This document shows, in pieces, positions 3,511-15,623 of a DNA stretch of 43,286 nt; the first letter of the stretch is position 1, and every line of letters begins with the position of its first letter. Both the position numbers and the translations under genes were made by a program. Source of the stretch: an uncultured Dehalococcoidia bacterium (GTDB lineage: Bacteria > Chloroflexota > Dehalococcoidia > Lucifugimonadales > CAZGRI01); contig CAZGRI010000002.1 of assembly GCA_964528205.1 (NCBI GenBank), positions 6,912 through 50,197 on the forward strand. Direction: 5' to 3'. The notes under the pieces were generated by a model. The model did not search any database and had not been told where the DNA came from. It was given only the letters and a program-made list of their open reading frames with translations.

Positions 3511-4926
3511 CTAATCGTCGGCAGGCGCCAGCAGATGCTCGTCGACCTCGGCGTGGCCGTTGGTAGAGTGCTCGTAGTGGCGCTTCATGGCCTCCAGGTC
3601 GACCTCATCCTCCCGCGCGTAGCCCTTGCCGTCGTGCCGGTCGTACGGGAACGGCATGAATTTCTCGAACTTCTCCTTGAACCGCTGGCGGCTTGGCCTG
3701 CGGTCGAAGGGGAATCGGAACCTGGCGGGGTCTCCCGGCTCGACCTCGATGAGCTCGTAGTCGCGGCTGCCCAGTCCGTTGGTGTGTCCGGTGTTGATGG
3801 TCGCGACTTCACTCTGGCCGTGCAGGGTGGCCGCGGCGGCCTCGAACTTGGCGTCGCCGGGGTTCGCGGCCTCCATCACCTCGGCCAGCGATCCGGCGAT
3901 GCCGGGCGCATTCCTGGCCGCGTCCACGCAGGCCATGTCTATGGCCACGGGGTCCTTGCTGGCAAAGACTCCCAGATGGGGAACGATGGGTACGTCGGCC
4001 ATCGCTGCACAGTCGCACTTGGGCGACACGTCGATGGCCATGTTGATGTAGCCTACCTTCCCACGCCCCACAGCCTTCTCGACGCCCAGGGCCGCGTCGG
4101 CGATGGCGACGTCGACCGCGTCGAAGTTGATCCCCGGCGGGTCAAGGATGCCTCGTGGACCCAACACTCCAGCGCACCCTAGACAGGTCACGCACTTCTC
4201 ACGCTCCCATTCGATCTGGTCGTCACCGTTGATGTGGTATAGGTCGAACGGGCAGCAGTCTTCCAGGATCTCCCAATCCGGCGTGTTCTCCTTGCCCTTG
4301 AAGGCCTCCGGGTTCCAGCCCGCGGCGGCCCCGAAGCCGTACCTGGGGTGGCCACCCATGTGGACGTTCAGCTTGCCTCGCTTGGACTGCCCGCCTATTC
4401 CCAGGTTCTTCAGGGAGCCGCCGATAACACCCATGGCATGGCCCTTGAAGTGGGTCAGAGCTATCAGGACATCAGCCGCGGCGATGGCCTGGGCTACGTA
4501 CGCCTCTTTCAAGAGATAGCCCTCGGGTATGTCGACGCGGTAGTCGCTGGTGCCGATGAACCCGTCGGCCACGATGAACGGACAGCCCAGCGTCGCGGAT
4601 GTGTAGCCGTTGCGTTCCGCCGTCTGCAGCAGGTCCAGCTCGTTGGTCCGAGCAGCATATGGGCCGTAGGTCTGCGTCGTTGTGTCGCAGACGAAGGGCC
4701 TACCGCCCAGCTCCTTGATCCTATCGGCCAGCGTACGGGCGTACACCGGGCGCAGATATGCCGAGTTGTTCCACTCGCCACAGTGGACCTTGATGGCAAC
4801 CACGTCATTTGGCTTGATCATTTTGTCCAGACCGGCTGCGTCGAACACCGTGATCAGCTTGGCTGGGAGGGCCGTTTCCGGCGTTTCGGAGTGGGCGTCC
4901 ATGTAGTAGACACTAGACTTAGCCAT
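3511..4926 (-). CDS. DUF362 domain iron-sulfur protein
   Basis: VAIKVHCGE, PFIVADG, THFKGH..GGSLKNLGIG, CVTCLGC, SPKCDC, ASKDPVAIDMAC; RBS GGAGGT before ATG 4926. Confidence 0.88.
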   Translation of the reverse strand: MAKSSVYYMDAHSETPETALPAKLITVFDAAGLDKMIKPNDVVAIKVHCGEWNNSAYLRPVYARTLADRIKELGGRPFVCDTTTQTYGPYAARTNELDLLQTAERNGYTSATLGCPFIVADGFIGTSDYRVDIPEGYLLKEAYVAQAIAAADVLIALTHFKGHAMGVIGGSLKNLGIGGQSKRGKLNVHMGGHPRYGFGAAAGWNPEAFKGKENTPDWEILEDCCPFDLYHINGDDQIEWEREKCVTCLGCAGVLGPRGILDPPGINFDAVDVAIADAALGVEKAVGRGKVGYINMAIDVSPKCDCAAMADVPIVPHLGVFASKDPVAIDMACVDAARNAPGIAGSLAEVMEAANPGDAKFEAAAATLHGQSEVATINTGHTNGLGSRDYELIEVEPGDPARFRFPFDRRPSRQRFKEKFEKFMPFPYDRHDGKGYAREDEVDLEAMKRHYEHSTNGHAEVDEHLLAPADD

Positions 4927-5122: not shown

Positions 5123-6856
5123 TCAGAACAGGCCGACCGTCTTGCCCGTCTCGGGGTCGATGTCGACGTCGAAGAAGGCGGGCCTGCTGCCCAGCCCCGG
5201 CATGGTCATCATGCTTCCGCAGATGGGATATAGGAATCCTGCGCCGACGGACGCCCGGACCTCTCTGACCGGCAGCCGGTAGCCGCGCGGCACGCCCTTC
5301 AGGGCCGGGTCGTGGGACAGAGACAGGTGCGTCTTGGCCATGTTTATGTTCAGCTTGCCGTAGCCCAGCTCCGTGTATAGCCTGATTGACCGGTTCGCGC
5401 TCGGCGAGTAGTCGACGCCGCCGGCCCCGAATATCTTGGTGGCTATCGTTTCGATCTTCTCTTTGATGGGTATGTCCTCCGGGTAGAGGAAGTTCATGTC
5501 GTGGGGCAGCTCCACGGCCTTGAGCACCTCGTTGGCCAGGTCTTCGGCGCCCTCGCCTCCCTTGGCCCAGCCCTCCGAGAGGGCTACGCCTGCCGCACCG
5601 GCCTCCAGGGCCTTGGACCGGACCATCTCGACCTCGGCATCGGTGTCGGCATTGAACCTGTTGATGGCGACCACGGCCGGCACACCGAACGTCTTTACGA
5701 TCTCGATGTTGCGGGCCAGGTTGACGCAGCCGGCCTCCAGTGCCGGGAGGTTCTCCGTCTCGGCCGCTTCCTTGACCGACGAATAAGGCCTGCCCGGACG
5801 CAGGTTGAAGGCGCCGCCGTGTTGTTTCAGAGCGCGGACGGTGGCGACTATGACCGCACAGTCGACCTTCATGCCGCTCTGCCGGCACACCACCTCCACG
5901 ATCTTCGCGAAGCCGTTCTCGGCCCCGAAGCCGCTCTCGGTCACGACGTAGTCCGCCAGCTTCAGGGCTATCAGGTCGGCCAGTATCGAGTTGTTGCCAT
6001 GGGCGACGTTGGCGAAAGGGAAGCCGTGGCAGATCATGGGGTGGCCCTCGGTCGACTGAACGAGGTTGGGCTTGATGGCGTCCTTGAGGAGCACGGCCAT
6101 GGCGCCGGCGACGTTCAGGTCGTCCAACGTGACCGGCTTCCGGTCATAGCTGTATCCGACGACGGCCCTGCCAAGCCTGGCCCGCAGGTCGGCGACTCCA
6201 GTTGCCAGCGAGTGTATGGCCGCGGTCTCGGTGGCGACCGTGATGTCGTAGCTGGTGGTCCTCGGGTAGCCGTTGGCCCTGCCCCCGAGACCGACAACCA
6301 CCTGTCTCAGAGCGCGGTTGTTCAAGTCGACGCAGCCCATCCACGTCACGTTAAGTGGATCCAGGTCGTGCTTGTTGCCGTGGAGGATATGCGCGTCCAC
6401 GGCGGCGGCGGCCAGGTTGTGTGCCGTCTCGACGGCGTGGATGTCTCCGGTAAAGTGGAGGTTGATGTTCTCCATGGGCAATGCCTGAGAGTAGCCGCCT
6501 CCCGTGGCCCCTCCCTTGATTCCGAAGGTGGGGCCTTTAGAGGGCTCGCGGAAGGTGTTGATTGTCCGTTTACCGGCCCTGGCCAGCGCCTGCCCGAGCG
6601 CGAACGCGGTCACCGTTTTCCCCTCGCCGAGCGGCGTAGGGGTGATCGCCGTCACCGCTATCAGCTTGCCGTCAGGCCCGTCCTTGAGTCTCTCCAATGT
6701 GTTGACATAGTCGATCTTGGCGACGTTCCGGCCATACATCTCGAGCTCGTCCTCCAGTAGCCCGGCGTCCCGGGCGACGTCCTGGATCGGACGGAGCTCC
6801 GCCTCCTGGGCGATCTCGAGGTCCTCGGGCACAGGCCACCGTACTTGTACCGGCAT
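5123..6856 (-). CDS. fhs: Formate--tetrahydrofolate ligase
   Basis: TAITPTPLGEGKT, GPTFGIKGGATGGGYSQ, NLHFTGDIHA, PFANVAHG, MAKTHLSLS, MTMPGL; RBS AGGAGG. Confidence 0.97.
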   Translation of the reverse strand: MPVQVRWPVPEDLEIAQEAELRPIQDVARDAGLLEDELEMYGRNVAKIDYVNTLERLKDGPDGKLIAVTAITPTPLGEGKTVTAFALGQALARAGKRTINTFREPSKGPTFGIKGGATGGGYSQALPMENINLHFTGDIHAVETAHNLAAAAVDAHILHGNKHDLDPLNVTWMGCVDLNNRALRQVVVGLGGRANGYPRTTSYDITVATETAAIHSLATGVADLRARLGRAVVGYSYDRKPVTLDDLNVAGAMAVLLKDAIKPNLVQSTEGHPMICHGFPFANVAHGNNSILADLIALKLADYVVTESGFGAENGFAKIVEVVCRQSGMKVDCAVIVATVRALKQHGGAFNLRPGRPYSSVKEAAETENLPALEAGCVNLARNIEIVKTFGVPAVVAINRFNADTDAEVEMVRSKALEAGAAGVALSEGWAKGGEGAEDLANEVLKAVELPHDMNFLYPEDIPIKEKIETIATKIFGAGGVDYSPSANRSIRLYTELGYGKLNINMAKTHLSLSHDPALKGVPRGYRLPVREVRASVGAGFLYPICGSMMTMPGLGSRPAFFDVDIDPETGKTVGLF

Positions 6857-7262: not shown

Positions 7263-7796
7263 TCAGATGAGACCGTGCTCACGCAGCCAACGCGCCAACG
7301 AGAATGCCCAGACTGGATAACCGAAGTATAATCCAGCCAGAACGTGCAGAAACATGCCCTTCGGTGACGTTTTGGTGGTCCGGCCTAGATGGCCCGTGAT
7401 GACAAACCAGGCGAGGATTGCCATGAACGCGGCAACCACCATTCCGATCTGCCGGCCGAACGAGAGCACCCCGACCACGAGCAGTATCTGGAGGACAATG
7501 ACGGCAGCCATACCAGCGACTCCGAGCACCAACGCGACCAGGCTCAGGGTCGGCCCACGAGGCTGCAGCAGCCGTTGAAGCGCGAGCACAACGGGCAGCG
7601 CGAGTGTGTACTGCACGATCACGCTGACATCGTTGAGCGTTCCCATCGGTCCGATGAACGTCGTAAAGAAGGCTACTAGGAACCCAATACCGAAAATGCA
7701 GGCAATCCCGCTCGCGTAAGCGCACAATCCGGCCACACGAACAAGCCGGTCCGGTCTGGTCCTGGTTGGGACCGGCGGCTGGCTCCGGTGTGACAC
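7263..7796 (-). CDS. Hypothetical integral membrane protein (about 5 TM)
   Basis: Several long hydrophobic stretches, GTLND motif, C-terminal YPVWAFSLARWL; GTG start uncertain. Confidence 0.7.
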   Translation of the reverse strand: MSHRSQPPVPTRTRPDRLVRVAGLCAYASGIACIFGIGFLVAFFTTFIGPMGTLNDVSVIVQYTLALPVVLALQRLLQPRGPTLSLVALVLGVAGMAAVIVLQILLVVGVLSFGRQIGMVVAAFMAILAWFVITGHLGRTTKTSPKGMFLHVLAGLYFGYPVWAFSLARWLREHGLI

Positions 7797-7888: not shown

Positions 7889-8557
7889 CTACCGGTAATT
7901 GGACTTCGCCGGCTGTACTCCGGCACGGCGGAACATCACCACGCTGATCGCCATCAGCCAGACCCAGAAGAGCAAATACGGAGCGAAGGCTGCTGGACTG
8001 GTCCAGTAGGTCGGGGCTGTAACCAGCCATATACCCACAATCAGACCTGTCCAACCGAGCCATCGAGGGAATGCAGCTAGCCATAGAGATGCGGCGGATA
8101 CCGGTAGGGCGAGGGCACCGAACAAGACCCAGGAAGTGGCGAACGTGAAGTTCCCCAGATCGAAAAGGAGGCGGGCGATCTGAGGGTCAAGCCCTTCGTC
8201 GATCCTGAACACTGCCAGGTACCATGCCCCTCCACCTAGGAGTAGCGCTACGGCCCCCAATCCCGCGCCTACGGCAACAAGTGACAGCCAGCCCGGTTCA
8301 CCCTCTGTCCGACGGAGCGCGCCCCACAGACCGCCCAGGAAACCAAGGAATGCGAGCAGCGAAAGTGCCGATAGATAGCCCCCGATGTTGAAGAGCAAGG
8401 TATTCCTTGATTCGAAGAATTCGACGATCTCCTGTGAGGACGCACCAAAGGACGGCTCTGAACCTCCCACTTGTATGAGGCTCTGCCCGATGAGCTGCAA
8501 AACGACGAACAGTATGCCGCCGGCGGCGCCTACTTGTTCCAGACGGCGAAGTGCCAT
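7889..8557 (-). CDS. DUF4386-like integral membrane protein
   Basis: AAGGILFVVL, P...ASSQEIVEFF, LRRTEG.PGWLS, FPRWLGWTG and LFWVWLMAIS pattern with about 6 TM. Start at 8557 has a GGGGA RBS; the ORF extends to 8629. Confidence 0.7.
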   Translation of the reverse strand: MALRRLEQVGAAGGILFVVLQLIGQSLIQVGGSEPSFGASSQEIVEFFESRNTLLFNIGGYLSALSLLAFLGFLGGLWGALRRTEGEPGWLSLVAVGAGLGAVALLLGGGAWYLAVFRIDEGLDPQIARLLFDLGNFTFATSWVLFGALALPVSAASLWLAAFPRWLGWTGLIVGIWLVTAPTYWTSPAAFAPYLLFWVWLMAISVVMFRRAGVQPAKSNYR

Positions 8558-8689
8558 CGTGATTCCCCTGCGTCCAAGGCTACAACTATGAATCGACATC
8601 GTGGCGGGCTCAGCGTCGGCTGCTTCCATGGCCGTATACAGGCCGTCGTGGCAACCGCCTTCAGGGTGGGGTGGAGGCGCTTCGATTCC

Positions 8690-9484
8690 TTATCCCACGG
8701 TCAGGGTCCCTGTCATGGACTCGTGGCCTGGGATGGTGCACTTGTACTCGAAGGTACCCGTATTCCTTGGAGATAGTGAGAGTGCCTGTTCTCCACGGGG
8801 TCCGACAGTCACATCGACGCCAAGCTCGTCGATAGTGAAGGTGTGCATGTACAGGTCATCGTTCCTGAGGACAAGGCGGAGCGTCTCCCCAGCTTTGGTG
8901 TCCAGCTGAGCGGTCCTAAACTCAGTCCTCTTCATCAACACCTCGACCGCGCCGGCGCGGTCCGCCTCCTCAACGGTATCGCGTGCCGCCAGGGTGACGA
9001 CCACCGAGACGACCACCACGGCGGCTACCACCACCGCAACGCCTCGCAACGCGTTGCGTTCGAATGCGGTCGCCCCATCCCGAGCCGTGCCGCGCCGGAT
9101 CTGTACGAAGGCGACGATCGAGCCAACGAGCGCCAAGATGGACGCTACGGTCGTGACAACGGCCACACCAAAGTCGAACACGCTATTAATGCTGCCGGTC
9201 GACTGGATCAAGTAGGGTCCGTACACCAGGGCGGTTCCCAGCAGACCGGCGATGGCGCCGAACACCAATGGCCATGCCCCAAACCGCCAGATCAGACCGG
9301 CGACAATAAGGGCTATGGCGACGTTGATGATCAGGAAGGCCAGGTTCGATGTGTCACCTGAGGCAAGCTGAACGACCCCCAGAATCACCATCATCACGAC
9401 GATGGTGATCAGGCCCCCGATCGCGAGGCGCGTGTAGAAGGGCATGCTCGTGGACTCGCCCATTGTCGTTTCTTTCTCAGACAT
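8690..9484 (-). CDS. Membrane protein with C-terminal cupredoxin domain
   Basis: About 5 hydrophobic helices followed by LRNDDLYMHTFT...GTFEYKCTIPGHESMTGTLTV, giving a His/Cys/His/Met type-1 copper ligand set; RBS GGAGG. Confidence 0.85.
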   Translation of the reverse strand: MSEKETTMGESTSMPFYTRLAIGGLITIVVMMVILGVVQLASGDTSNLAFLIINVAIALIVAGLIWRFGAWPLVFGAIAGLLGTALVYGPYLIQSTGSINSVFDFGVAVVTTVASILALVGSIVAFVQIRRGTARDGATAFERNALRGVAVVVAAVVVVSVVVTLAARDTVEEADRAGAVEVLMKRTEFRTAQLDTKAGETLRLVLRNDDLYMHTFTIDELGVDVTVGPRGEQALSLSPRNTGTFEYKCTIPGHESMTGTLTVG

Positions 9485-9596: not shown

Positions 9597-10268
9597 TCAC
9601 TTCGAAGCCTGGGTAACTGGTCGGCGAGACACCCAGAATAGTCTGAGTGCCATGACCTCGGCCCAAGCAAACCACGTCAGTATGTACAGACGCTGCAACA
9701 ACCCGTTCACGGTATCAACTTCGGCGGCCTTGGCAACGCCGATCCAGAGGACGAGGCTTACCAGGGCAGCGACGGCGGCCATCGAGGAAAAGCGAGAGAG
9801 TCCGCGCCAGAGCGGGTCTCTCTGAAGCCTTCTCGAGATTACCCACATACCCCCGATAGCAGCTATGAAACCTCCGAGCCCCGTCAGGTTGTGCATCGTT
9901 CCTGTGAAGGACTGGAATTCGCAGCCGGGATCGCAAGGCAAGAGGGCGTTCGCTAGTCCAGAACTAACGCCGAATACGGCTACGAGCACCGGGCCAAGCG
10001 CTGACCCCTTGCCTCCACCGATACCTCGATGAAGGCCCAGGGCAAAGGCTATGAACAGGGCGCCGGCTAAGAAGAAGTTGATGTTCTGGAGCAGAGGCTG
10101 TTGGGCGCCGTCGCCCCCAAGCTCACTCACAGCCTGGGCGACATGGCTATAGCCGTCGTAGATGAACCCAGCCACCGTCACCAGGGTGGCGAAGACAACA
10201 GGAGCAGCGATGCCGCATAAGGCCAGGAATCTCACCAAGCTGTCGGAGTTAGCGCGACTTTCGAGCAT
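9597..10268 (-). CDS. DUF998 family membrane protein
   Basis: GYSHVAQAVSELG, LPCDPGC, MHNLTG, GLLQRL motifs; RBS GGAGG 7 nt upstream. Confidence 0.85.
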   Translation of the reverse strand: MLESRANSDSLVRFLALCGIAAPVVFATLVTVAGFIYDGYSHVAQAVSELGGDGAQQPLLQNINFFLAGALFIAFALGLHRGIGGGKGSALGPVLVAVFGVSSGLANALLPCDPGCEFQSFTGTMHNLTGLGGFIAAIGGMWVISRRLQRDPLWRGLSRFSSMAAVAALVSLVLWIGVAKAAEVDTVNGLLQRLYILTWFAWAEVMALRLFWVSRRPVTQASK

Positions 10269-10312
10269 TGGTCATCCTCCGTGGGGTCGTCAAGGGTCCT
10301 GTTGAAATCCGT

Positions 10313-10423
10313 TCAGCGGGTCGTGGAGGCAGTCTCTCGCCACACAAGCACCGGCTCCCGTGAGTCTGCCGAAATTGACATCACAGCAAAAGACAACATT
10401 GCGTTCGAACACATGAGACGCAA
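10313..10423 (-). CDS. Putative small protein (36 aa)
   Basis: AAAGGAGG (10438-10431) lies 7 nt before TTG 10423; reads (M)RLMCSNAMLSFAVMSISADSREPVLVWRETASTTR*. It is the first ORF after a predicted promoter. Confidence 0.4.
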   Translation of the reverse strand: MRLMCSNAMLSFAVMSISADSREPVLVWRETASTTR

Positions 10424-10462
10424 GGTCGAGCCTCCTTTCGCGGGTGTTACCCGTCTCCTGGC

Positions 10463-10529
10463 AAGTTAAGTCATGAGAAGTCCCAATGTCATGGGAGCGG
10501 CAACCTGAATCGGCTGGGACTGCCGTCCC
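10463..10529 (-). promoter_or_regulatory. Promoter with GGGAC-N4-GTCCC operator upstream of the DUF998 operon
   Basis: Palindrome GGGACTGCCGTCCC (10516-10529), ATGACA -35-like box (10492-10487), TAACTT -10-like box (10468-10463); same layout as 13908-13973. Confidence 0.6.
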
Positions 10530-10761
10530 GACTTAGGAAGGGACATCGATGACTGGAGAGGGCCTTGAGGAGGCGGTTAGAAGCAGCGCGGCGGTCTCGA
10601 CGTAAGTGGGTGAGGGTGTGTCTAGATCCGGGCGGTGAGCAGCGATCCAAGCCACCGGTCACGTGGTGCAAAATAGGGAAGCCGTCGCGAAAACCTGGAT
10701 ACGCAGTGCCTCCACTTATTGTGGGCGGCGCGACGCGCTGTAGAGTTCAGGCCCAGGAGGG

Positions 10762-11448
10762 CTAGGGCTCCTGGGTGCCCAGCCCGGCCTCTCTCGCCCG
10801 GAGCGCGGCCTGTACTCGGTCGGCCACCTGCAGCTTGCTGAAAATGTTGGAGACGTGGTTCCGTACGGTCTTGGGGCTCAAGACCAGTTTCTCGGCGATA
10901 TCCGTATTGTTGACTCCCTGGGCGACGAGGGTCAGGATCTCTCGCTCCCGATCGGTCAGCTCTGGCAAAACCTCGGGGGGTGCGGAAGGCCGACGACTGG
11001 CAAAGTAGCTCATCATCCGGGTCGCGATGGCCGGACCGAAGATCGCCTCACCGCCAGCCACCGCCTGGATGGCTCTGAGGATCTCAACCTGGTCTGCCCC
11101 TTTCAGCAAGTATCCACGAGCTCCTGCGCGTACTGCCGCAAAGACGGTATCGTCGTCTTCGAACATGGTGAGCATCAGGATTGCGGTACGTGGACTGGCG
11201 TTCAGTATTCGCCGCGTCGCCTCTATGCCATTCACGCCAGGCATCCGGATATCCATCAGGACCACGTCTGGCTGCAGGCTGTCGGCGCTTGCGACCGCAT
11301 CTTCGCCCGTCGAGGCCTCTCCGACCAAGTCGGTTTCCGGCACGGATTCCAACAGTGACCGAAGTCCGTCGCGGAACAGGGGGTGGTCGTCGGCTATGAG
11401 CACTCGGATCGGGTCCATTGGAGGCTCCGGAGATGCAGAGATATTCAT
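10762..11448 (-). CDS. NarL/LuxR family DNA-binding response regulator
   Basis: IADDH, PDVVLMD (phospho-Asp), GYLLK, LTDREREIL..NTDIAEKLVLSPKTVRNHVSNIFSKL HTH. Confidence 0.96.
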   Translation of the reverse strand: MNISASPEPPMDPIRVLIADDHPLFRDGLRSLLESVPETDLVGEASTGEDAVASADSLQPDVVLMDIRMPGVNGIEATRRILNASPRTAILMLTMFEDDDTVFAAVRAGARGYLLKGADQVEILRAIQAVAGGEAIFGPAIATRMMSYFASRRPSAPPEVLPELTDREREILTLVAQGVNNTDIAEKLVLSPKTVRNHVSNIFSKLQVADRVQAALRAREAGLGTQEP

Positions 11449-13799
11449 GGATCGGACCTTACCTGGTCCGGCAAAGGCGGCCCGTACCTCAATGGAAGAC
11501 GGGCCAGGACGCGAGTGCCGCCATCCGGTACTGTCTCGACGACACAGGTGCCGCCCAACTCCTCGGCACGCTCGCGCATAGACGAAATTCCGACTCCGTT
11601 TTGGCGGTCAGCCGCGACCCCAACTCCGTCATCCGTGACCTGCAGCTCAAGGGTATCACGCTCGCCGTTGGAGACCCGGACCGTGCAGCTGGCGGCTTGT
11701 GCATGCCGTACCACATTGGTCAAGGCCTCCATGGCTATGCGATAAACGGCTACCTCCGCGGCTGCCGGTAGGGGCGGCATCTGCTCCGGGGCGTCGATAG
11801 AAACGCGCAGCATGTCGGCACCGGCGCTCCTGCCGTCCCCGGCCGCCGTACCGTTTAGCTGCGTGGCGTACTCGCGGATGGCGGAGATAAGACCGAGCTC
11901 GTCGAGGGCGGGAGGGCGGAGCTCATAGACCAGGCGCCGAATGTCGGCTATCGCCGACTGAGCCTGCGCCTTGAGATCCACGAGTGGCCTGTCAGCCGCC
12001 TCTGGGTCCGTACTCAGAAGGTTACGAGCAGCATCCATCTTCATCGCGATGCCTGCCAGGACCGGTCCCAGCCCATCATGGAGGGCGCGTCGAATCCGAC
12101 GACGCTCTTCTTCGCGAGCCGTGACAAGCCGTTCCCTTGAGCCCTGTAGGTCCGCGGTCAGCCGGACCCCGTGCGCGACAACCCCTGCCTGACGCACAAT
12201 GTCGGTGAGCAGCTGATGGTCGGTCTGGCTGAACGGCTGCTCTGGGCCACGCGTCGCGAGATGCAACTGGCCTATGGTTTCTCCTTGATATGCGAGAGGC
12301 AGGGTCATCGTCTCGCCGAAGGGCTGGCCATAGGCTGCAGCCGGCTCGGCCTCATCGCCGTCGCCAAAGGCGATGGCCGCGTACGGTGATTTGAACGCCT
12401 GAGCGACCGTTTCCACGATTGCACGAAGCATGGCGTCAGGCGCTAGAGTGACCTCCAGGCGTCGTCCAAGGTCCGAAAGCACCTCATAGGGGTCGTCCCG
12501 CTGGCCGTAGATCATTCTGTTGACTAGCCGCTGCAGTCGTTCCCGCAACGGCTGGAAAAGCACCGCCACGACCCCGATCACCAGGACGGAGATCAGCAGG
12601 TTGTCGCTTGTTTGAAACAGGACCCCAGCGACTCCTACGATCAGAACGTAGATACCCACGATGAGGGCGGTGAGGCTGGTGTAAACCAGAGTGCGGTTGA
12701 CCTTCGCCTCGATGTCGAACAGCCGGTATTCCAAGATCCCGATCGCCATCGCGAACAGTACAGGCAAGGCCAACAAGGCTTGTGCGTTCCAGCTTATGAG
12801 CGGCCCTTCCAGCAGTATCTCGGGTAGGTTCCCCAGGGCCACGATCAACGTGAAAAAGACGCCGAAGGCAAGAACCACCCAACGCACCTGGCGACGGCTT
12901 ATGGGGTCCAGGGATGTCCGGTAGCGCCACACCATGGCGGCCAGAGCCAGGACCATGTAGACAACTGGAGTCCACAGATGGGCATCGCCGGATCGCGCGA
13001 GCCAATCAAGGATGCTTGCGGCGGACGGCCACGTCGCCGCTGCGGTGATTATGTTGATGGAATAGGGGAGGACGTACAAAGCGGGGAGCACCCAGGTCCT
13101 ACCTTGGACCAGCTCCACGGGTCTGGGAAACACGAGCCAGAAATGCACCAGCGTGATCCAAACGAGAGTGTATGAAACAAAGTTGGTGGCCGAGAACAGC
13201 CAAAATTCCAAACCCAGTGTGAGATCGATCGGCTCCAGGCCTAGCCCCCAGACCGTAGAGCTTACCCCGGCCGCCGAAAAGAGCAGAAGGACCCTGGCCG
13301 CCGGATCGCCCGGGCGCCTGAAGAAGACAAAGGAACTCAAAAAAACGAACAATAACGCCGCAAGAAAGATACCCCACGAACGCGCCAATATCGGGCCGAG
13401 GGGATATCTCTCAAAGGTCACGCCCAGGTCGATCACGCTGCCGTCGCGCTCAACCGTGTAGGTGACCGTCTGGCCAATGTCCCAGCGACCACGGGCGGCC
13501 CACGGCGCGGACGTGTCCCTGATCCACGATTCCAGAGAGCGTCCCTCGACAGCGACGACCACGTCGCCCTCGTGGATCGACTCAGGCCCCTGTTTGAGAG
13601 GAGCAACCTCCACACCGTTGGGCCGGAACGCCGATGGACTCCACAGAAACCGAGCCCCGTCGGAGGGACTCGTCACATGGATCCCAACAAAGAGTCCGAA
13701 AGTGGCAACGAGCAGCACGGCCAAGCCGAGCACAGCCCAGCTGGAGGCCGTGAAACACCAGGCATTGTGAGGCTCTGCTGCGGTGACGTCCACCTTCAT
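11445..13799 (-). CDS. Membrane sensor histidine kinase (PDZ-like, multi-TM, GAF-like, HisKA_3, HATPase)
   Basis: EERRRIRRALHDGLGP H-box, LRPPALDELGL, EALTNVVRHA N-box, DDGVG, GISSMRERAEELGG; EGDVVVAVEG PDZ-like segment; ATGA overlap with the regulator. Confidence 0.94.
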   Translation of the reverse strand: MKVDVTAAEPHNAWCFTASSWAVLGLAVLLVATFGLFVGIHVTSPSDGARFLWSPSAFRPNGVEVAPLKQGPESIHEGDVVVAVEGRSLESWIRDTSAPWAARGRWDIGQTVTYTVERDGSVIDLGVTFERYPLGPILARSWGIFLAALLFVFLSSFVFFRRPGDPAARVLLLFSAAGVSSTVWGLGLEPIDLTLGLEFWLFSATNFVSYTLVWITLVHFWLVFPRPVELVQGRTWVLPALYVLPYSINIITAAATWPSAASILDWLARSGDAHLWTPVVYMVLALAAMVWRYRTSLDPISRRQVRWVVLAFGVFFTLIVALGNLPEILLEGPLISWNAQALLALPVLFAMAIGILEYRLFDIEAKVNRTLVYTSLTALIVGIYVLIVGVAGVLFQTSDNLLISVLVIGVVAVLFQPLRERLQRLVNRMIYGQRDDPYEVLSDLGRRLEVTLAPDAMLRAIVETVAQAFKSPYAAIAFGDGDEAEPAAAYGQPFGETMTLPLAYQGETIGQLHLATRGPEQPFSQTDHQLLTDIVRQAGVVAHGVRLTADLQGSRERLVTAREEERRRIRRALHDGLGPVLAGIAMKMDAARNLLSTDPEAADRPLVDLKAQAQSAIADIRRLVYELRPPALDELGLISAIREYATQLNGTAAGDGRSAGADMLRVSIDAPEQMPPLPAAAEVAVYRIAMEALTNVVRHAQAASCTVRVSNGERDTLELQVTDDGVGVAADRQNGVGISSMRERAEELGGTCVVETVPDGGTRVLARLPLRYGPPLPDQVRSDP

Positions 13800-13907
13800 C
13801 TGATGCCCAAAAGCCGGCGCCCTCGATTGCGGCGATGGGAGCTCGGAACAGGGACGCCCCGCGCCGCCCCGATCTGTCTGCAGTTCCCAGCCACCGGCTG
13901 ACAGCCA

Positions 13908-13973
13908 ATGATAAACCAGATGGTGGAGGGTGTCATGGGAGCACTGTCACGATCGGTTTGGGTCATCTGTCCC
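13908..13973 (-). promoter_or_regulatory. Promoter with operator upstream of the kinase-regulator operon
   Basis: Near-palindromes GGGTC-ATCT-GTCCC (13960-13973) and GGGAG-CACT-GTCAC (13937-13950), then ATGACA (13936-13931), 17 bp, TATCAT (13913-13908). Confidence 0.62.
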
Positions 13974-14090
13974 AGCCGATCAGGAGCTAGAGTCGGGCTA
14001 TCGATCTGTTGGCGCGTGCGAGACTAATGAGAAGAGGAGCTTGGAGCGAGGCGCCCAGATTCTCCCTGTGGAGTCGCGATGCCCGGGTCT

Positions 14091-14119
14091 TTGACTGAGG
14101 GAGGAGCCGAACCTATACT
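14091..14119 (+). promoter_or_regulatory. Sigma70-type promoter for pabB
   Basis: TTGACT (14091-14096), 17 bp, TATACT (14114-14119). Confidence 0.65.
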
Positions 14120-14201
14120 ACCGGATAGGACGGGTCGAACCCAAGCCGCAACGCGGCTCCGGCCGTCGATCGCACCAGCCGACAACCTGAGGTACTGAGT
14201 A

Positions 14202-15623
14202 GTGGTCAGAACTGTCGCCAGGGGCCGGATATCGGAGCCGGCTGTCCGACCGCTGGGACCGTCGTCCCGTCTGGTCGACGTGTTCCCATCCTTTCTCGAC
14301 CTGCCATACCCCGTGCTGCTGGACAGCACGTCAAGCTCAGGCCGTGAGGCGCGGTTCGCCTACCTGACGGCAGACCCATTCATGGTGGTGCGCTCGAAGG
14401 GCAAGCACGTCGAGACCGAGTTCCAGGGTTCGATCGAGCGCCGCGAGTCAAGTCCCTTCGACGTGCTCCAGGAGCTGTTGAGGGACTTTCGGCTTCCGCG
14501 AGCACCGGGCGCGCCGCCGTTTCAGGGTGGAGCCGTCGGCTACCTCGCGTACGAGCTGGCGCACCATCTCGAACGTCTGCCGCTCACGGTGGCGGACGAC
14601 CTCAATCTACCCGAGATGAACGTCGGACTGTACGACTGGGTAATCGCCCAGGACCGCCAGACCAGGGAGACCTGGGCGATATCGACAGGGCTCCCGGAGG
14701 CATCCAGCGAGAGGGCAGAGGAGCGCCTCCGACAGGCCGTACACCGGATGAACAACAGGCCCAACCCTTCCGACCCGACGGCCATCGCGGCCGGTCCTGC
14801 TCAAATGCAATCGACTTTCACCCGGCAGGAATATCTGAAAGCGGTCCGGGCCGTAAAGACATATATCGTTCAGGGAGACACCTACCAGGTCAACATCTCC
14901 CAGCGGTTCGAGGTGCCGCTGGTGGTCCCGCCGTGGCAGCTGTATCGCCGTCTGCGTGAGGTCAACCCCGCGCCCTTCGCGGCCTATCTCCAGCACCCCG
15001 AGGTGGCGGTGTTGAGCGCGTCTCCGGAGGAGTACCTTCGACTCGAGGGCAGATCGGTCGAGACCAGGCCCATGAAGGGGACTAGGCCAAGAGGCCGTAC
15101 TCCTGCTGAAGACCGCCGGCTGGCCACGGAACTCTATGCCAGTGATAAGGAACGGGCCGAGAACGTGATGATCGTCGACCTCATGCGCAACGACCTGGGC
15201 CGCGTATGCGTCCCCGGGTCCATACACGTGCCGCATCTGTTCACCCTGGAGAAGCATCCCGCCGTGTTCCAGATGGTGTCCACGGTTCGCGGACGGACTC
15301 GCGCCGACGTGGACGCCGTGGACGTGCTCAAGGCCTGTTTCCCGGGTGGGTCGGTAACCGGCGCACCCAAGATCCGCGCTATGGAGATCATCGACGAGCT
15401 GGAGCCTACACAGCGCAGCGTCTACTGCGGGGCCATCGGATACATAGGCTTCGATGGGTCGATGCGGACCTCCATCCCCATTCGGATTCTTCTGGCCAAA
15501 GGCAACAGGGCCTACTTCCAGGTGGGCGGCGGCGTGGTGGCCGACTCCGACCCGGAGGCCGAGTACCGGGAAACACTCGACAAGGCCCAGGGCTCGCTGC
15601 GGGCGCTGGGTATCCACGGCTGA
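14202..15623 (+). CDS. pabB: Aminodeoxychorismate synthase component I
   Basis: VLLDS, PFQGGAVGYLAYEL, YQVNISQR, SASPE, PMKGTRPR, KERAENVMIVDLMRNDLGR, FPGGSVTGAPK. The P.KGT motif favours PabB over TrpE. Confidence 0.9.
   Translation: MVRTVARGRISEPAVRPLGPSSRLVDVFPSFLDLPYPVLLDSTSSSGREARFAYLTADPFMVVRSKGKHVETEFQGSIERRESSPFDVLQELLRDFRLPRAPGAPPFQGGAVGYLAYELAHHLERLPLTVADDLNLPEMNVGLYDWVIAQDRQTRETWAISTGLPEASSERAEERLRQAVHRMNNRPNPSDPTAIAAGPAQMQSTFTRQEYLKAVRAVKTYIVQGDTYQVNISQRFEVPLVVPPWQLYRRLREVNPAPFAAYLQHPEVAVLSASPEEYLRLEGRSVETRPMKGTRPRGRTPAEDRRLATELYASDKERAENVMIVDLMRNDLGRVCVPGSIHVPHLFTLEKHPAVFQMVSTVRGRTRADVDAVDVLKACFPGGSVTGAPKIRAMEIIDELEPTQRSVYCGAIGYIGFDGSMRTSIPIRILLAKGNRAYFQVGGGVVADSDPEAEYRETLDKAQGSLRALGIHG

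Follow-up and report, generated by a model that had tools for sequence, protein, structure and literature searches.

In the DosRST system of Mycobacterium tuberculosis, DosS and DosT are soluble haem-GAF sensors (tandem-GAF), and the NarL-family regulator DosR (also DevR) governs about 50 genes, with hypoxia and dormancy genes as its targets. The LiaFSR/VraSR systems of Firmicutes, which deal with cell-envelope stress, have a very small, locally encoded and autoregulated regulon of membrane proteins; they carry a LiaF-type accessory gene and a small intramembrane-sensing kinase, and the LiaR binding motif is different from the one considered below. For DosR, the consensus is given as TTSGGGACTWWAGTCCCSAA (PMC2275270). 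According to one article, no DevR promoter has fewer than two tandem boxes or more than four, an example being -42.5 and -63.5; a conserved Dev box draws DevR cooperatively to neighbours of poor conservation, and helical phasing is of importance (PMC3177182). In a 2026 cryo-EM report, the GGGACT and TGTCCC motifs are stated to be read by DosR through K179, K182 and N183 (PMC13486717). OsdR of Streptomyces, a DevR-like regulator outside mycobacteria, is reported to bind AGGGCCGATCGGCCCT (PMC5069765). In this study, we analysed a 43,286-nt stretch of DNA (referred to as the window) from a metagenome-assembled genome (MAG) of an uncultured marine Dehalococcoidia bacterium, in which two copies of one cassette lie beside a kinase-regulator gene pair. 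We regard the cassette as real: it is conserved and is predicted to be a DosR-like operator-promoter of a NarL-family regulator, in a two-component family of the Chloroflexota that is uncharacterised so far.

The source assembly (labelled G000) amounts to 1.76 Mb in 128 contigs and is 68% complete; the window is C2:6912-50197, and the nearest named relatives of the source are Chloroflexi MAGs. The initial annotation of this DNA had pointed to a repeated 12-mer followed by a GGGAC-N4-GTCCC dyad, with promoter-like boxes on the minus strand, ahead of the kinase-regulator pair in one case and of a DUF998/cupredoxin operon in the other. All of this was borne out: the 12-mer, TGTCATGGGAGC, lies at 10487-10498 and 13931-13942 (plus strand); the dyads start 29 bp after each copy, at 10516-10529 (perfect) and 13960-13973 (one mismatch); the box pairs are ATGACA-18-TAACTT (10492..10463) and ATGACA-17-TATCAT (13936..13908); and the genes downstream are as described. 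The further proposal that this dyad is the operator was supported, the dyad being present and conserved, with the refinement that each site carries two tandem dyads and not one. The proximal dyads, a GGGAC half-site in a promoter spacer (10480-10484) and a third perfect dyad (14255-14268) had been missed. Each cassette spans about 70 bp and reads, on the minus strand, as a distal GGGAC-N4-GTCCC dyad, 9 bp, a weaker proximal dyad, ATGACA, 17-18 bp and TAnnnT; the 12-mer consists of the -35 box together with the right half of the proximal dyad. The predicted dyad centres given below assume a transcription start 7 nt after the predicted -10 box.

13960..13973, minus strand: distal dyad of the kinase-operon cassette, GGGTCATCTGTCCC on the plus strand and GGGACAGATGACCC on the minus strand, one mismatch, predicted centre about -66.5
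13937..13950, minus strand: proximal dyad of the kinase-operon cassette, GTGACAGTGCTCCC on the minus strand, abutting the -35 box, predicted centre about -43.5
13931..13936, minus strand: -35-like ATGACA of the kinase-regulator operon promoter, matching TTGACA at five of six positions
13908..13913, minus strand: -10-like TATCAT of the kinase promoter, 17-bp spacer, predicted start near 13901
10540..10544, minus strand: extra upstream half-site, GTCCC on the minus strand, 10 bp before the distal dyad of the DUF998 cassette
10516..10529, minus strand: distal dyad of the DUF998-operon cassette, GGGACTGCCGTCCC on the plus strand, listed as GGGACGGCAGTCCC, perfect, predicted centre about -66.5
10493..10506, minus strand: proximal dyad of the DUF998-operon cassette, AGGTTGCCGCTCCC on the minus strand, with a degenerate left half, abutting the -35 box
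10487..10492, minus strand: -35-like ATGACA of the DUF998-operon promoter
10480..10484, minus strand: GGGAC half-site between the promoter boxes (columns 49-53 of the alignment), with no counterpart in the kinase cassette
10463..10468, minus strand: -10-like TAACTT of the DUF998 promoter, 18-bp spacer, predicted start near 10456, which would give a 188-nt leader

When 11 cassettes were aligned, they ran gap-free over 70 columns with the consensus nnCGnGACnnnnGTCCCGnCCnGATCGGGACACCGGnCCCATGACAnCGGGACnnnnCCnGnnTTAnnnT. Conservation is at least 90%, up to full invariance, across the proximal dyad, in the ATG of the -35 box and at the final T of the -10 box, and at least 90% in spacer columns C48, G50 and G51; in the DUF998 cassette the spacer between -35 and -10 carries CGGGAC. 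The kinase cassette has no spacer GGGAC, and the left half of its proximal dyad reads GTGAC. The gap between the distal and proximal dyads is fixed at 9 bp in 6/6 cases (the two window cassettes and those of the four closest orthologues). At an equal distance upstream, the extra half-site is exactly GTCCC in the DUF998 cassette and at two orthologous loci (L022 and L025), and ATCCC at a third (L024).

The two genes that encode the presumptive signalling pair are the following.

11445..13799, minus strand: sensor histidine kinase, 784 aa, with a weak PDZ-like N-terminus, a polytopic membrane region, a weak GAF match, HisKA_3 and HATPase_c
10762..11448, minus strand: NarL/LuxR-type response regulator, 228 aa, with a receiver domain (REC) and GerE, acceptor Asp66 and recognition helix KTVRNH (K193, R196, N197)

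The kinase matches HisKA_3 (2.7e-16) and HATPase_c (9.1e-14), more weakly PDZ_2 (E 0.0059), and GAF_2 in a single sub-threshold match; it has a long hydrophobic region, and its sensor has 10 helices. The regulator carries an N-terminal Response_reg (2.8e-28) and a C-terminal GerE domain (3.7e-20), and its cognate HisKA_3-type kinase is in the same operon, the kinase stop overlapping the regulator start (11445-11448). With a receiver bearing the acceptor Asp, a GerE helix-turn-helix (HTH) and a cognate HisKA_3 kinase, the regulator is a member of the NarL/FixJ class (LuxR-type HTH). Its K193, T194, R196 and N197 fall on DosR K179, T180, K182 and N183, with K182 conservatively replaced by Arg, and its Asp66 falls on D54; these correspondences were derived from the coordinates of ungapped alignments (61 versus 61 residues, with 3c3w at 146-206 and 1zlk at 24-84) plus the N-terminal offset. 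The KTVRNH helix recurs in all 10 regulators of the first locus set. Among the 7 GerE domains found in the 68%-complete genome, this regulator alone has K-x-x-R-N. At the phylum level (see below), 15/20 regulator hits have KT[VI]RN, and a strong cassette was present at 9/15 loci with such a regulator vs 1/4 loci with only S, Q or other variants. As the numbers are small and the loci related, this relation between head type and cassette is only a hint. Among relatives whose heads read K-T-V-S-N or K-T-V-Q-N (L061, L076, L062), the cassette is weakened or missing. In the structural database, the regulator matched LiaR/VraR best (5hev, 1.2e-48; for its DNA-binding domain, 4wsz, 6.6e-16), and also DevR (4.7e-39), NarL and DesR.

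Set beside DosR/DevR, the locus shares the palindrome core GGGAC-N4-GTCCC with 4 bp between the halves; the presence of at least two tandem boxes, in which the strong one would aid the weak one; a proximal box next to the -35 element; a NarL-family regulator with K179/K182/N183 there and K193/R196/N197 here; and a HisKA_3 kinase core, here preceded by a GAF-like region. Going by the predicted -10/-35 boxes, the proximal box here would be centred near -43.5, with -42.5 reported for DevR. However, the phylum is a different one, the regulator is overall closer to LiaR/VraR, K182 is Arg, and the kinase, 784 aa long, is a polytopic membrane protein whose N-terminus is weakly PDZ-like. The box centres are 23 bp apart instead of 21 bp, there is an extra conserved spacer half-site, the regulon would comprise one or two local promoters as opposed to some 50 genes, and the targets are membrane proteins of unknown function and not hypoxia or dormancy genes. 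From DevR not being the closest relative, the kinase architecture, the spacing, the local regulon and the lack of dormancy targets, we conclude that the system is not a DosRST orthologue; the cassette would nonetheless work like a Dev-box promoter.

The two other systems resemble the locus in different respects. OsdR/OsdK of Streptomyces coelicolor is reported to bind around its own locus, and its palindromic site was likewise found by comparing the upstream regions of orthologues (PMC5069765). Several of the proximal dyads in our set read GGGAC-N4-GGCCC and resemble the OsdR site. However, some 50 predicted targets and devR synteny are described for OsdR in that source, whereas our locus has no such synteny and a different sensor. 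LiaFSR/VraSR supplies the best structural-database matches of the regulator; it differs in its recognition helix, K-T-V-K-T there and K-T-V-R-N here, and in kinase architecture, the kinase here being large and polytopic.

The cassette as a composite is far above chance, and only these two sites exist in the assembly. The exact 12-mer has two copies only, both in the window, in the whole 1.76 Mb. A template of 26 positions, made up of the two dyads 23 bp apart plus ATGACA, was derived from the window sites and scanned over 3.5 million positions; the window sites had 3 and 4 mismatches, the next best site 6, and neither the reversed template nor five Markov-1 genomes gave any site at 6 mismatches or fewer. 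As the template came from the window sites themselves, it is the cassette's conservation at orthologous loci that counts as independent support. With a matrix made from the four closest orthologues alone, the DUF998 cassette ranked first in the genome (21.9 vs 11.9 bits). Within the window, perfect dyads are somewhat enriched (2 vs 0.18 expected; 1/100 shuffles reached 2). In the genome-wide dyad counts, GGGAC came sixth among 20 permuted half-site palindromes. The perfect dyads of G000 at C14:12970, C7:26198 and C38:4218 are intergenic, have tetraloop-like centres (TGAA, TTCG, TTCT) and T-rich tails, and look like intrinsic terminators rather than operators.

Orthologues were sought with the kinase sensor region in species-representative genomes, where 34 pattern matches led to six confirmed loci; in a scan of metagenome contigs for further orthologues, 74 stretches matched the pattern and none was confirmed. 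The kinases are 52-54% identical at four loci (L022-L025) and 39% at two (L026, L027), the regulators 64-75%. Conservation of the motif at orthologous loci had been set beforehand as a check of the operator proposal, and the cassette was found at 6/6 of them, just downstream of the regulator gene and aimed at the next operon. At such divergence the intergenic DNA around it is unalignable, yet the cassette has been kept. The four closer loci retain both dyads at the 9-bp distance; L026 and L027 have a perfect proximal dyad, with a direct TCGGGACAC repeat in place of the distal part. In L022, L024, L026 and L027, a start codon with a Shine-Dalgarno sequence follows the predicted transcription start after about 27-29 nt. 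Most target promoters have a weak -10 box (TAACTT, TAGTTT, TACTGT, CAAACT).

At the class level, 5 of 401 genomes, including the window's own, gave a match and thereby four more loci. The cassette is present at 3/4 of these (L034, L035, L037), in the form of a proximal dyad with ATGCGN behind it; a DUF4386 or cupredoxin-like gene lies downstream, ahead of the kinase and regulator genes. At the phylum level, 62/401 Chloroflexota genomes had a kinase match (E <=1e-25), several with tandem paralogues, and the best-scoring 20 loci from 19 genomes were scanned with a 30-column matrix built from 11 cassettes. This gave 12 sites of at least 16.9 bits in 11/20 loci (0.49 million positions), whereas in the control scan of G000 (3.51 million positions, two training sites excluded) no non-cassette site reached that score, the best other site having 16.5 bits. 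A TAnnnT box stands 17-18 bp after the -35 box in 9/12 of the new sites. At orthologous, class-level and phylum-level loci alike, the cassettes are always aimed at a gene on the same strand. In total, the cassette accompanies the kinase-regulator pair in 20/30 non-window loci, through different gene neighbourhoods. Tandem arrays of four to six kinase paralogues within 12-30 kb were also seen, at G623:C23:40882-57943, G467:C5:101056-129955 and G551:C9:196124-207872.

The layout with one cassette before the kinase gene and one after the regulator gene recurs at L074 (36.7 and 20.3 bits) and weakly at L070 (21.0 and 9.0 bits). Autoregulation, as the initial annotation had proposed it, would vary between lineages: a kinase-upstream cassette recurs at L034, L035, L037, L074 and, weakly, L070, but it is missing from the closest orthologues L022-L025. 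In these four, a perfect TATAAT lies 6-8 nt before the likely kinase start, with no Shine-Dalgarno sequence (L022, about 5985-6003; L023, about 4893-4910; L024, about 4208-4222; L025, about 5961-5976), which suggests leaderless, constitutive kinase transcripts. The orthologue in genome G033 (L021, 7316-7331 and 7464-7479) has TGTGACCTGTT(A/G)GT twice upstream of the kinase gene, the second copy overlapping the -35 region of its TATAAT promoter; these repeats may be a different operator. When contigs of four DNA runs were compared with positions 10200-14300, they were short pieces, mostly at least 99% identical, with no listed difference inside either cassette; the population is too uniform for this comparison to inform on selective constraint. 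Among 20 runs, none was listed as an RNA run with this DNA in it.

Taken together, both loci are probably regulator-dependent sigma-70-type promoters with tandem operators for the adjacent NarL-family regulator. The polytopic kinase (11445-13799) would phosphorylate Asp66 of the regulator, whose dimers would occupy the strong distal dyad at about -66.5 and then, cooperatively, the weaker proximal dyad 23 bp downstream, at about -43.5 and abutting ATGACA. At the proximal site the regulator would recruit RNA polymerase, as DosR/DevR does, and the operon for DUF998, cupredoxin and membrane proteins would be switched on. In this lineage the kinase-regulator operon would be switched on too, giving positive feedback. 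We infer that the adjacent regulator binds these sites and acts as an activator, not as a repressor, and we likewise infer the transcription starts.

Several observations weigh against this reading. The bare dyad is not above chance, with 4 copies (up to one mismatch) in the window vs 4.65 expected and 8 perfect copies genome-wide vs a mean of 5.4 in 10 Markov-2 simulations. The kinase cassette scores poorly with matrices that come from other loci: it is not in the top 15 of the full matrix from four orthologues; the proximal-only matrix from six orthologues ranks the window cassettes fourth and ninth of 3.5 million positions, the kinase cassette being only ninth; and with a nine-sequence matrix the DUF998 cassette is fifth and the kinase cassette outside the top 12. 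Support for the kinase cassette comes from the shared 12-mer, the identical dyad register, its promoter with 10/12 matches in the promoter scan (13936..13908), and the kinase-upstream cassettes of L034, L035, L037 and L074. Some related loci have no cassette at all. At class-level locus L036 (1/4) nothing exceeded 4.7 bits, and 9/20 phylum-level loci are without one, of which one (L060) is a 6.7-kb contig; in six of these nine, a KT[VI]RN regulator is present nevertheless. The closest orthologues have TATAAT promoters instead of a cassette before the kinase gene. By bit score, the regulator is nearer to LiaR/VraR (168.8 and 151.7) and NarL (146.7) than to DevR (137.5), and the boxes are spaced 23 bp apart vs 21 bp for DevR. 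As the kinase promoter is near consensus, it may need no activator, so that repression or fine-tuning is possible, and the conserved spacer GGGAC would place the regulator under RNA polymerase. Finally, with the genome 68% complete, other targets may be unassembled.

Two of the cassette-less phylum-level loci carry variant repeats. At L063 (about 10530-10590, minus strand), whose regulator reads S-T-V-R-N-Y, arrays of AGGACA/ATGACAC are followed by a TAnnCT box, and at L067 (about 3900-3945, minus strand) a GGGACAATTTCCCAG repeat is followed by a TAnnCT box; there is no scoring cassette at either locus, and these repeats may be diverged operators.

The same adjacent regulator might instead act through these operators as a repressor, or in a dual manner, occupying the proximal dyad and the spacer GGGAC and so blocking RNA polymerase until a signal arrives. 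The -35 box with five of six consensus positions, the 10/12 kinase promoter, the conserved CGGGAC between -35 and -10 (C48, G50 and G51) and the plain TATAAT promoters, without a cassette, of the closest orthologues' kinase genes are in favour of such a mode. However, weak -10 boxes at most target promoters are typical of activator-dependent promoters, the box positions fit the activating DevR layout, and the kinase cassette lacks the spacer half-site; we consider repressive or dual action unlikely. That the cassette is bound by another factor (a different transcription factor or an alternative sigma) and is merely linked to the kinase-regulator pair seems very improbable to us. The protein-DNA link here is one of sequence comparison, six loci with a KT[VI]RN regulator lack a detectable cassette, and further regulators may be unseen in a genome that is 68% complete; on the other hand, the cassette travels with the pair through varied neighbourhoods, and DosR reads this very motif with its K/K/N head, the K/R/N counterpart being confined to this regulator among the seven GerE domains. 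GGGAC as an alternative -35 element was rejected, as it stands 11 nt from TAnnnT, too close for such an element.

Hardly any credence is left for the idea that the dyads form hairpins in RNA, either to terminate the regulator gene or as a structure of the leader, or that they match by chance. It is true that 2/6 cassette RNAs outdo every one of 200 shuffles in folding (z -3.7 and -3.2), that other perfect dyads of the genome look like terminators, and that the bare dyad count equals chance. However, the predicted folds disagree between sequences, 4/6 being unremarkable, and in the 11-row alignment covariation is 0.145 vs 0.122 in shuffles (122/500 shuffles reach it) and paired cells amount to 69.1% vs 66.6%. 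Compensatory changes are missing from all five proximal pairs (0/5), and 7/11 sequences break the A-T pair. There is no T-run after the dyads, no Rfam match for 10200-14300 at E up to 1, and no upstream same-strand gene for the kinase copy to terminate, and the dyads lie upstream of the predicted start. The hairpin reading was thus rejected on folding and pair counts, which give no covariation support, and chance cannot yield the same 70-bp layout at related loci. The half-sites degenerate one-sidedly, which is the pattern of protein-binding sites. Two other candidates were also discarded: a small open reading frame (ORF) from the conserved ATG in CCCATGACA, as the conserved columns follow no three-base period and the frames downstream vary from locus to locus; and a mobile repeat, as the assembly has two copies only and other genera have the cassette at equivalent positions.

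The initial annotation had called the regulon self-contained, and as far as could be tested, this held. No third composite site was found in this assembly at 5 mismatches or fewer to the 26-position template, and in the genomes of two relatives, G033 (81% complete) and G088 (84% complete), exact copies of the proximal pattern are confined to a single site each, beside the kinase-regulator pair. Proximal matches with one mismatch numbered 10 in five genomes, as frequent as a control pattern, and none had the other cassette features. The regulon seems to be limited to these two promoters. Besides the kinase-regulator operon, the predicted targets in the window are the following genes.

9597..10268, minus strand: DUF998 membrane protein, first gene of the target operon
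8690..9484, minus strand: membrane-anchored protein with a cupredoxin domain
7889..8629, minus strand: membrane protein, 246 aa, with a sub-threshold DUF4386 match (E 0.024)
7263..7796, minus strand: membrane protein, 177 aa, no Pfam family, with homologues downstream of the cassette in L026 and L027

All six genes are on the minus strand, and 493 bp separate the regulator gene from the DUF998 gene. Among the DUF998, cupredoxin and two further membrane genes, no minus-strand promoter-like or intergenic terminator-like sites were found, and the four genes probably form one operon. Within the predicted DUF998 leader there is a 36-aa ORF (TTG start; 10313-10423, minus strand) with AAAGGAGG ahead of it, and at the corresponding position after the L022 cassette there is a 72-aa membrane ORF.

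Elsewhere, the genes behind cassettes encode dihaem cytochrome c, a 12-helix protein and DUF998 (L022 and L024), DUF6220 (L026, L075) and DUF4386 (L034, L035, L058, L064); other cassettes, including those at the phylum level, precede genes for BNR propellers, an SRPBCC protein, an F420H2 quinone reductase and a PEBP protein. Small multi-pass membrane proteins are recurrent among the targets. A DUF998 protein, DrmA of Enterococcus, is tied to membrane-lipid homeostasis in a 2026 preprint (PMC13370385). Judging from the 10-helix sensor and the membrane-protein targets, our guess would be that the signal is a membrane or envelope cue.

Beyond the kinase cassette, two further elements lie in or near the divergent gene for a chorismate-binding enzyme.

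14255..14268 (context 14252-14272), no strand assigned: third perfect dyad, GGGACCGTCGTCCC, in codons 18-22 of the divergent chorismate-binding-enzyme ORF (14202-15623, plus strand)
14091-14119, plus strand: promoter-like TTGACT-17-TATACT (10/12), facing the chorismate-binding-enzyme gene and divergent from the kinase promoter

The third dyad is 86% identical over 21 nt to the copy at 10513-10533 and lies 295 bp from the distal dyad of the kinase cassette. The rough odds of a chance dyad within 400 bp of either cassette are about 0.005, from some 5.4 chance dyads per 1.76 Mb. Its status is uncertain, and it may be a remote or roadblock site, or chance.

The mechanism proposed here is not of a new kind. 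A literature search on NarL/DosR-type regulators and motifs in Chloroflexi, with subscription journals outside its scope, gave no description of this system. A broader idea, speculative and in our opinion rather doubtful, is that: polytopic kinases, often in multiple copies, are wired throughout the Chloroflexota to regulators with a K-x-x-R/K-N head; these regulators use the DosR box at strictly local regulons of one or two promoters; the code linking head to motif has been kept or re-invented across Actinomycetota and Chloroflexota, independent of sensor and regulon content; and the spacer GGGAC, which would set the mechanism apart from that of DosR, serves as a switch between repression and activation by spacer contact.

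To our knowledge, the Chloroflexota are mostly uncultured and almost none of their regulation has been mapped. The cassette would provide a testable operator, promoter and target set for a two-component family that is uncharacterised so far and is present in 62/401 sampled Chloroflexota genomes, and it would link DUF998, DUF4386 and DUF6220, membrane families of unknown function, to one sensory pathway. Even in a far-removed phylum, the recognition-helix pattern of DosR predicts its DNA box, which may help to assign the sites of NarL-family regulators from sequence alone.

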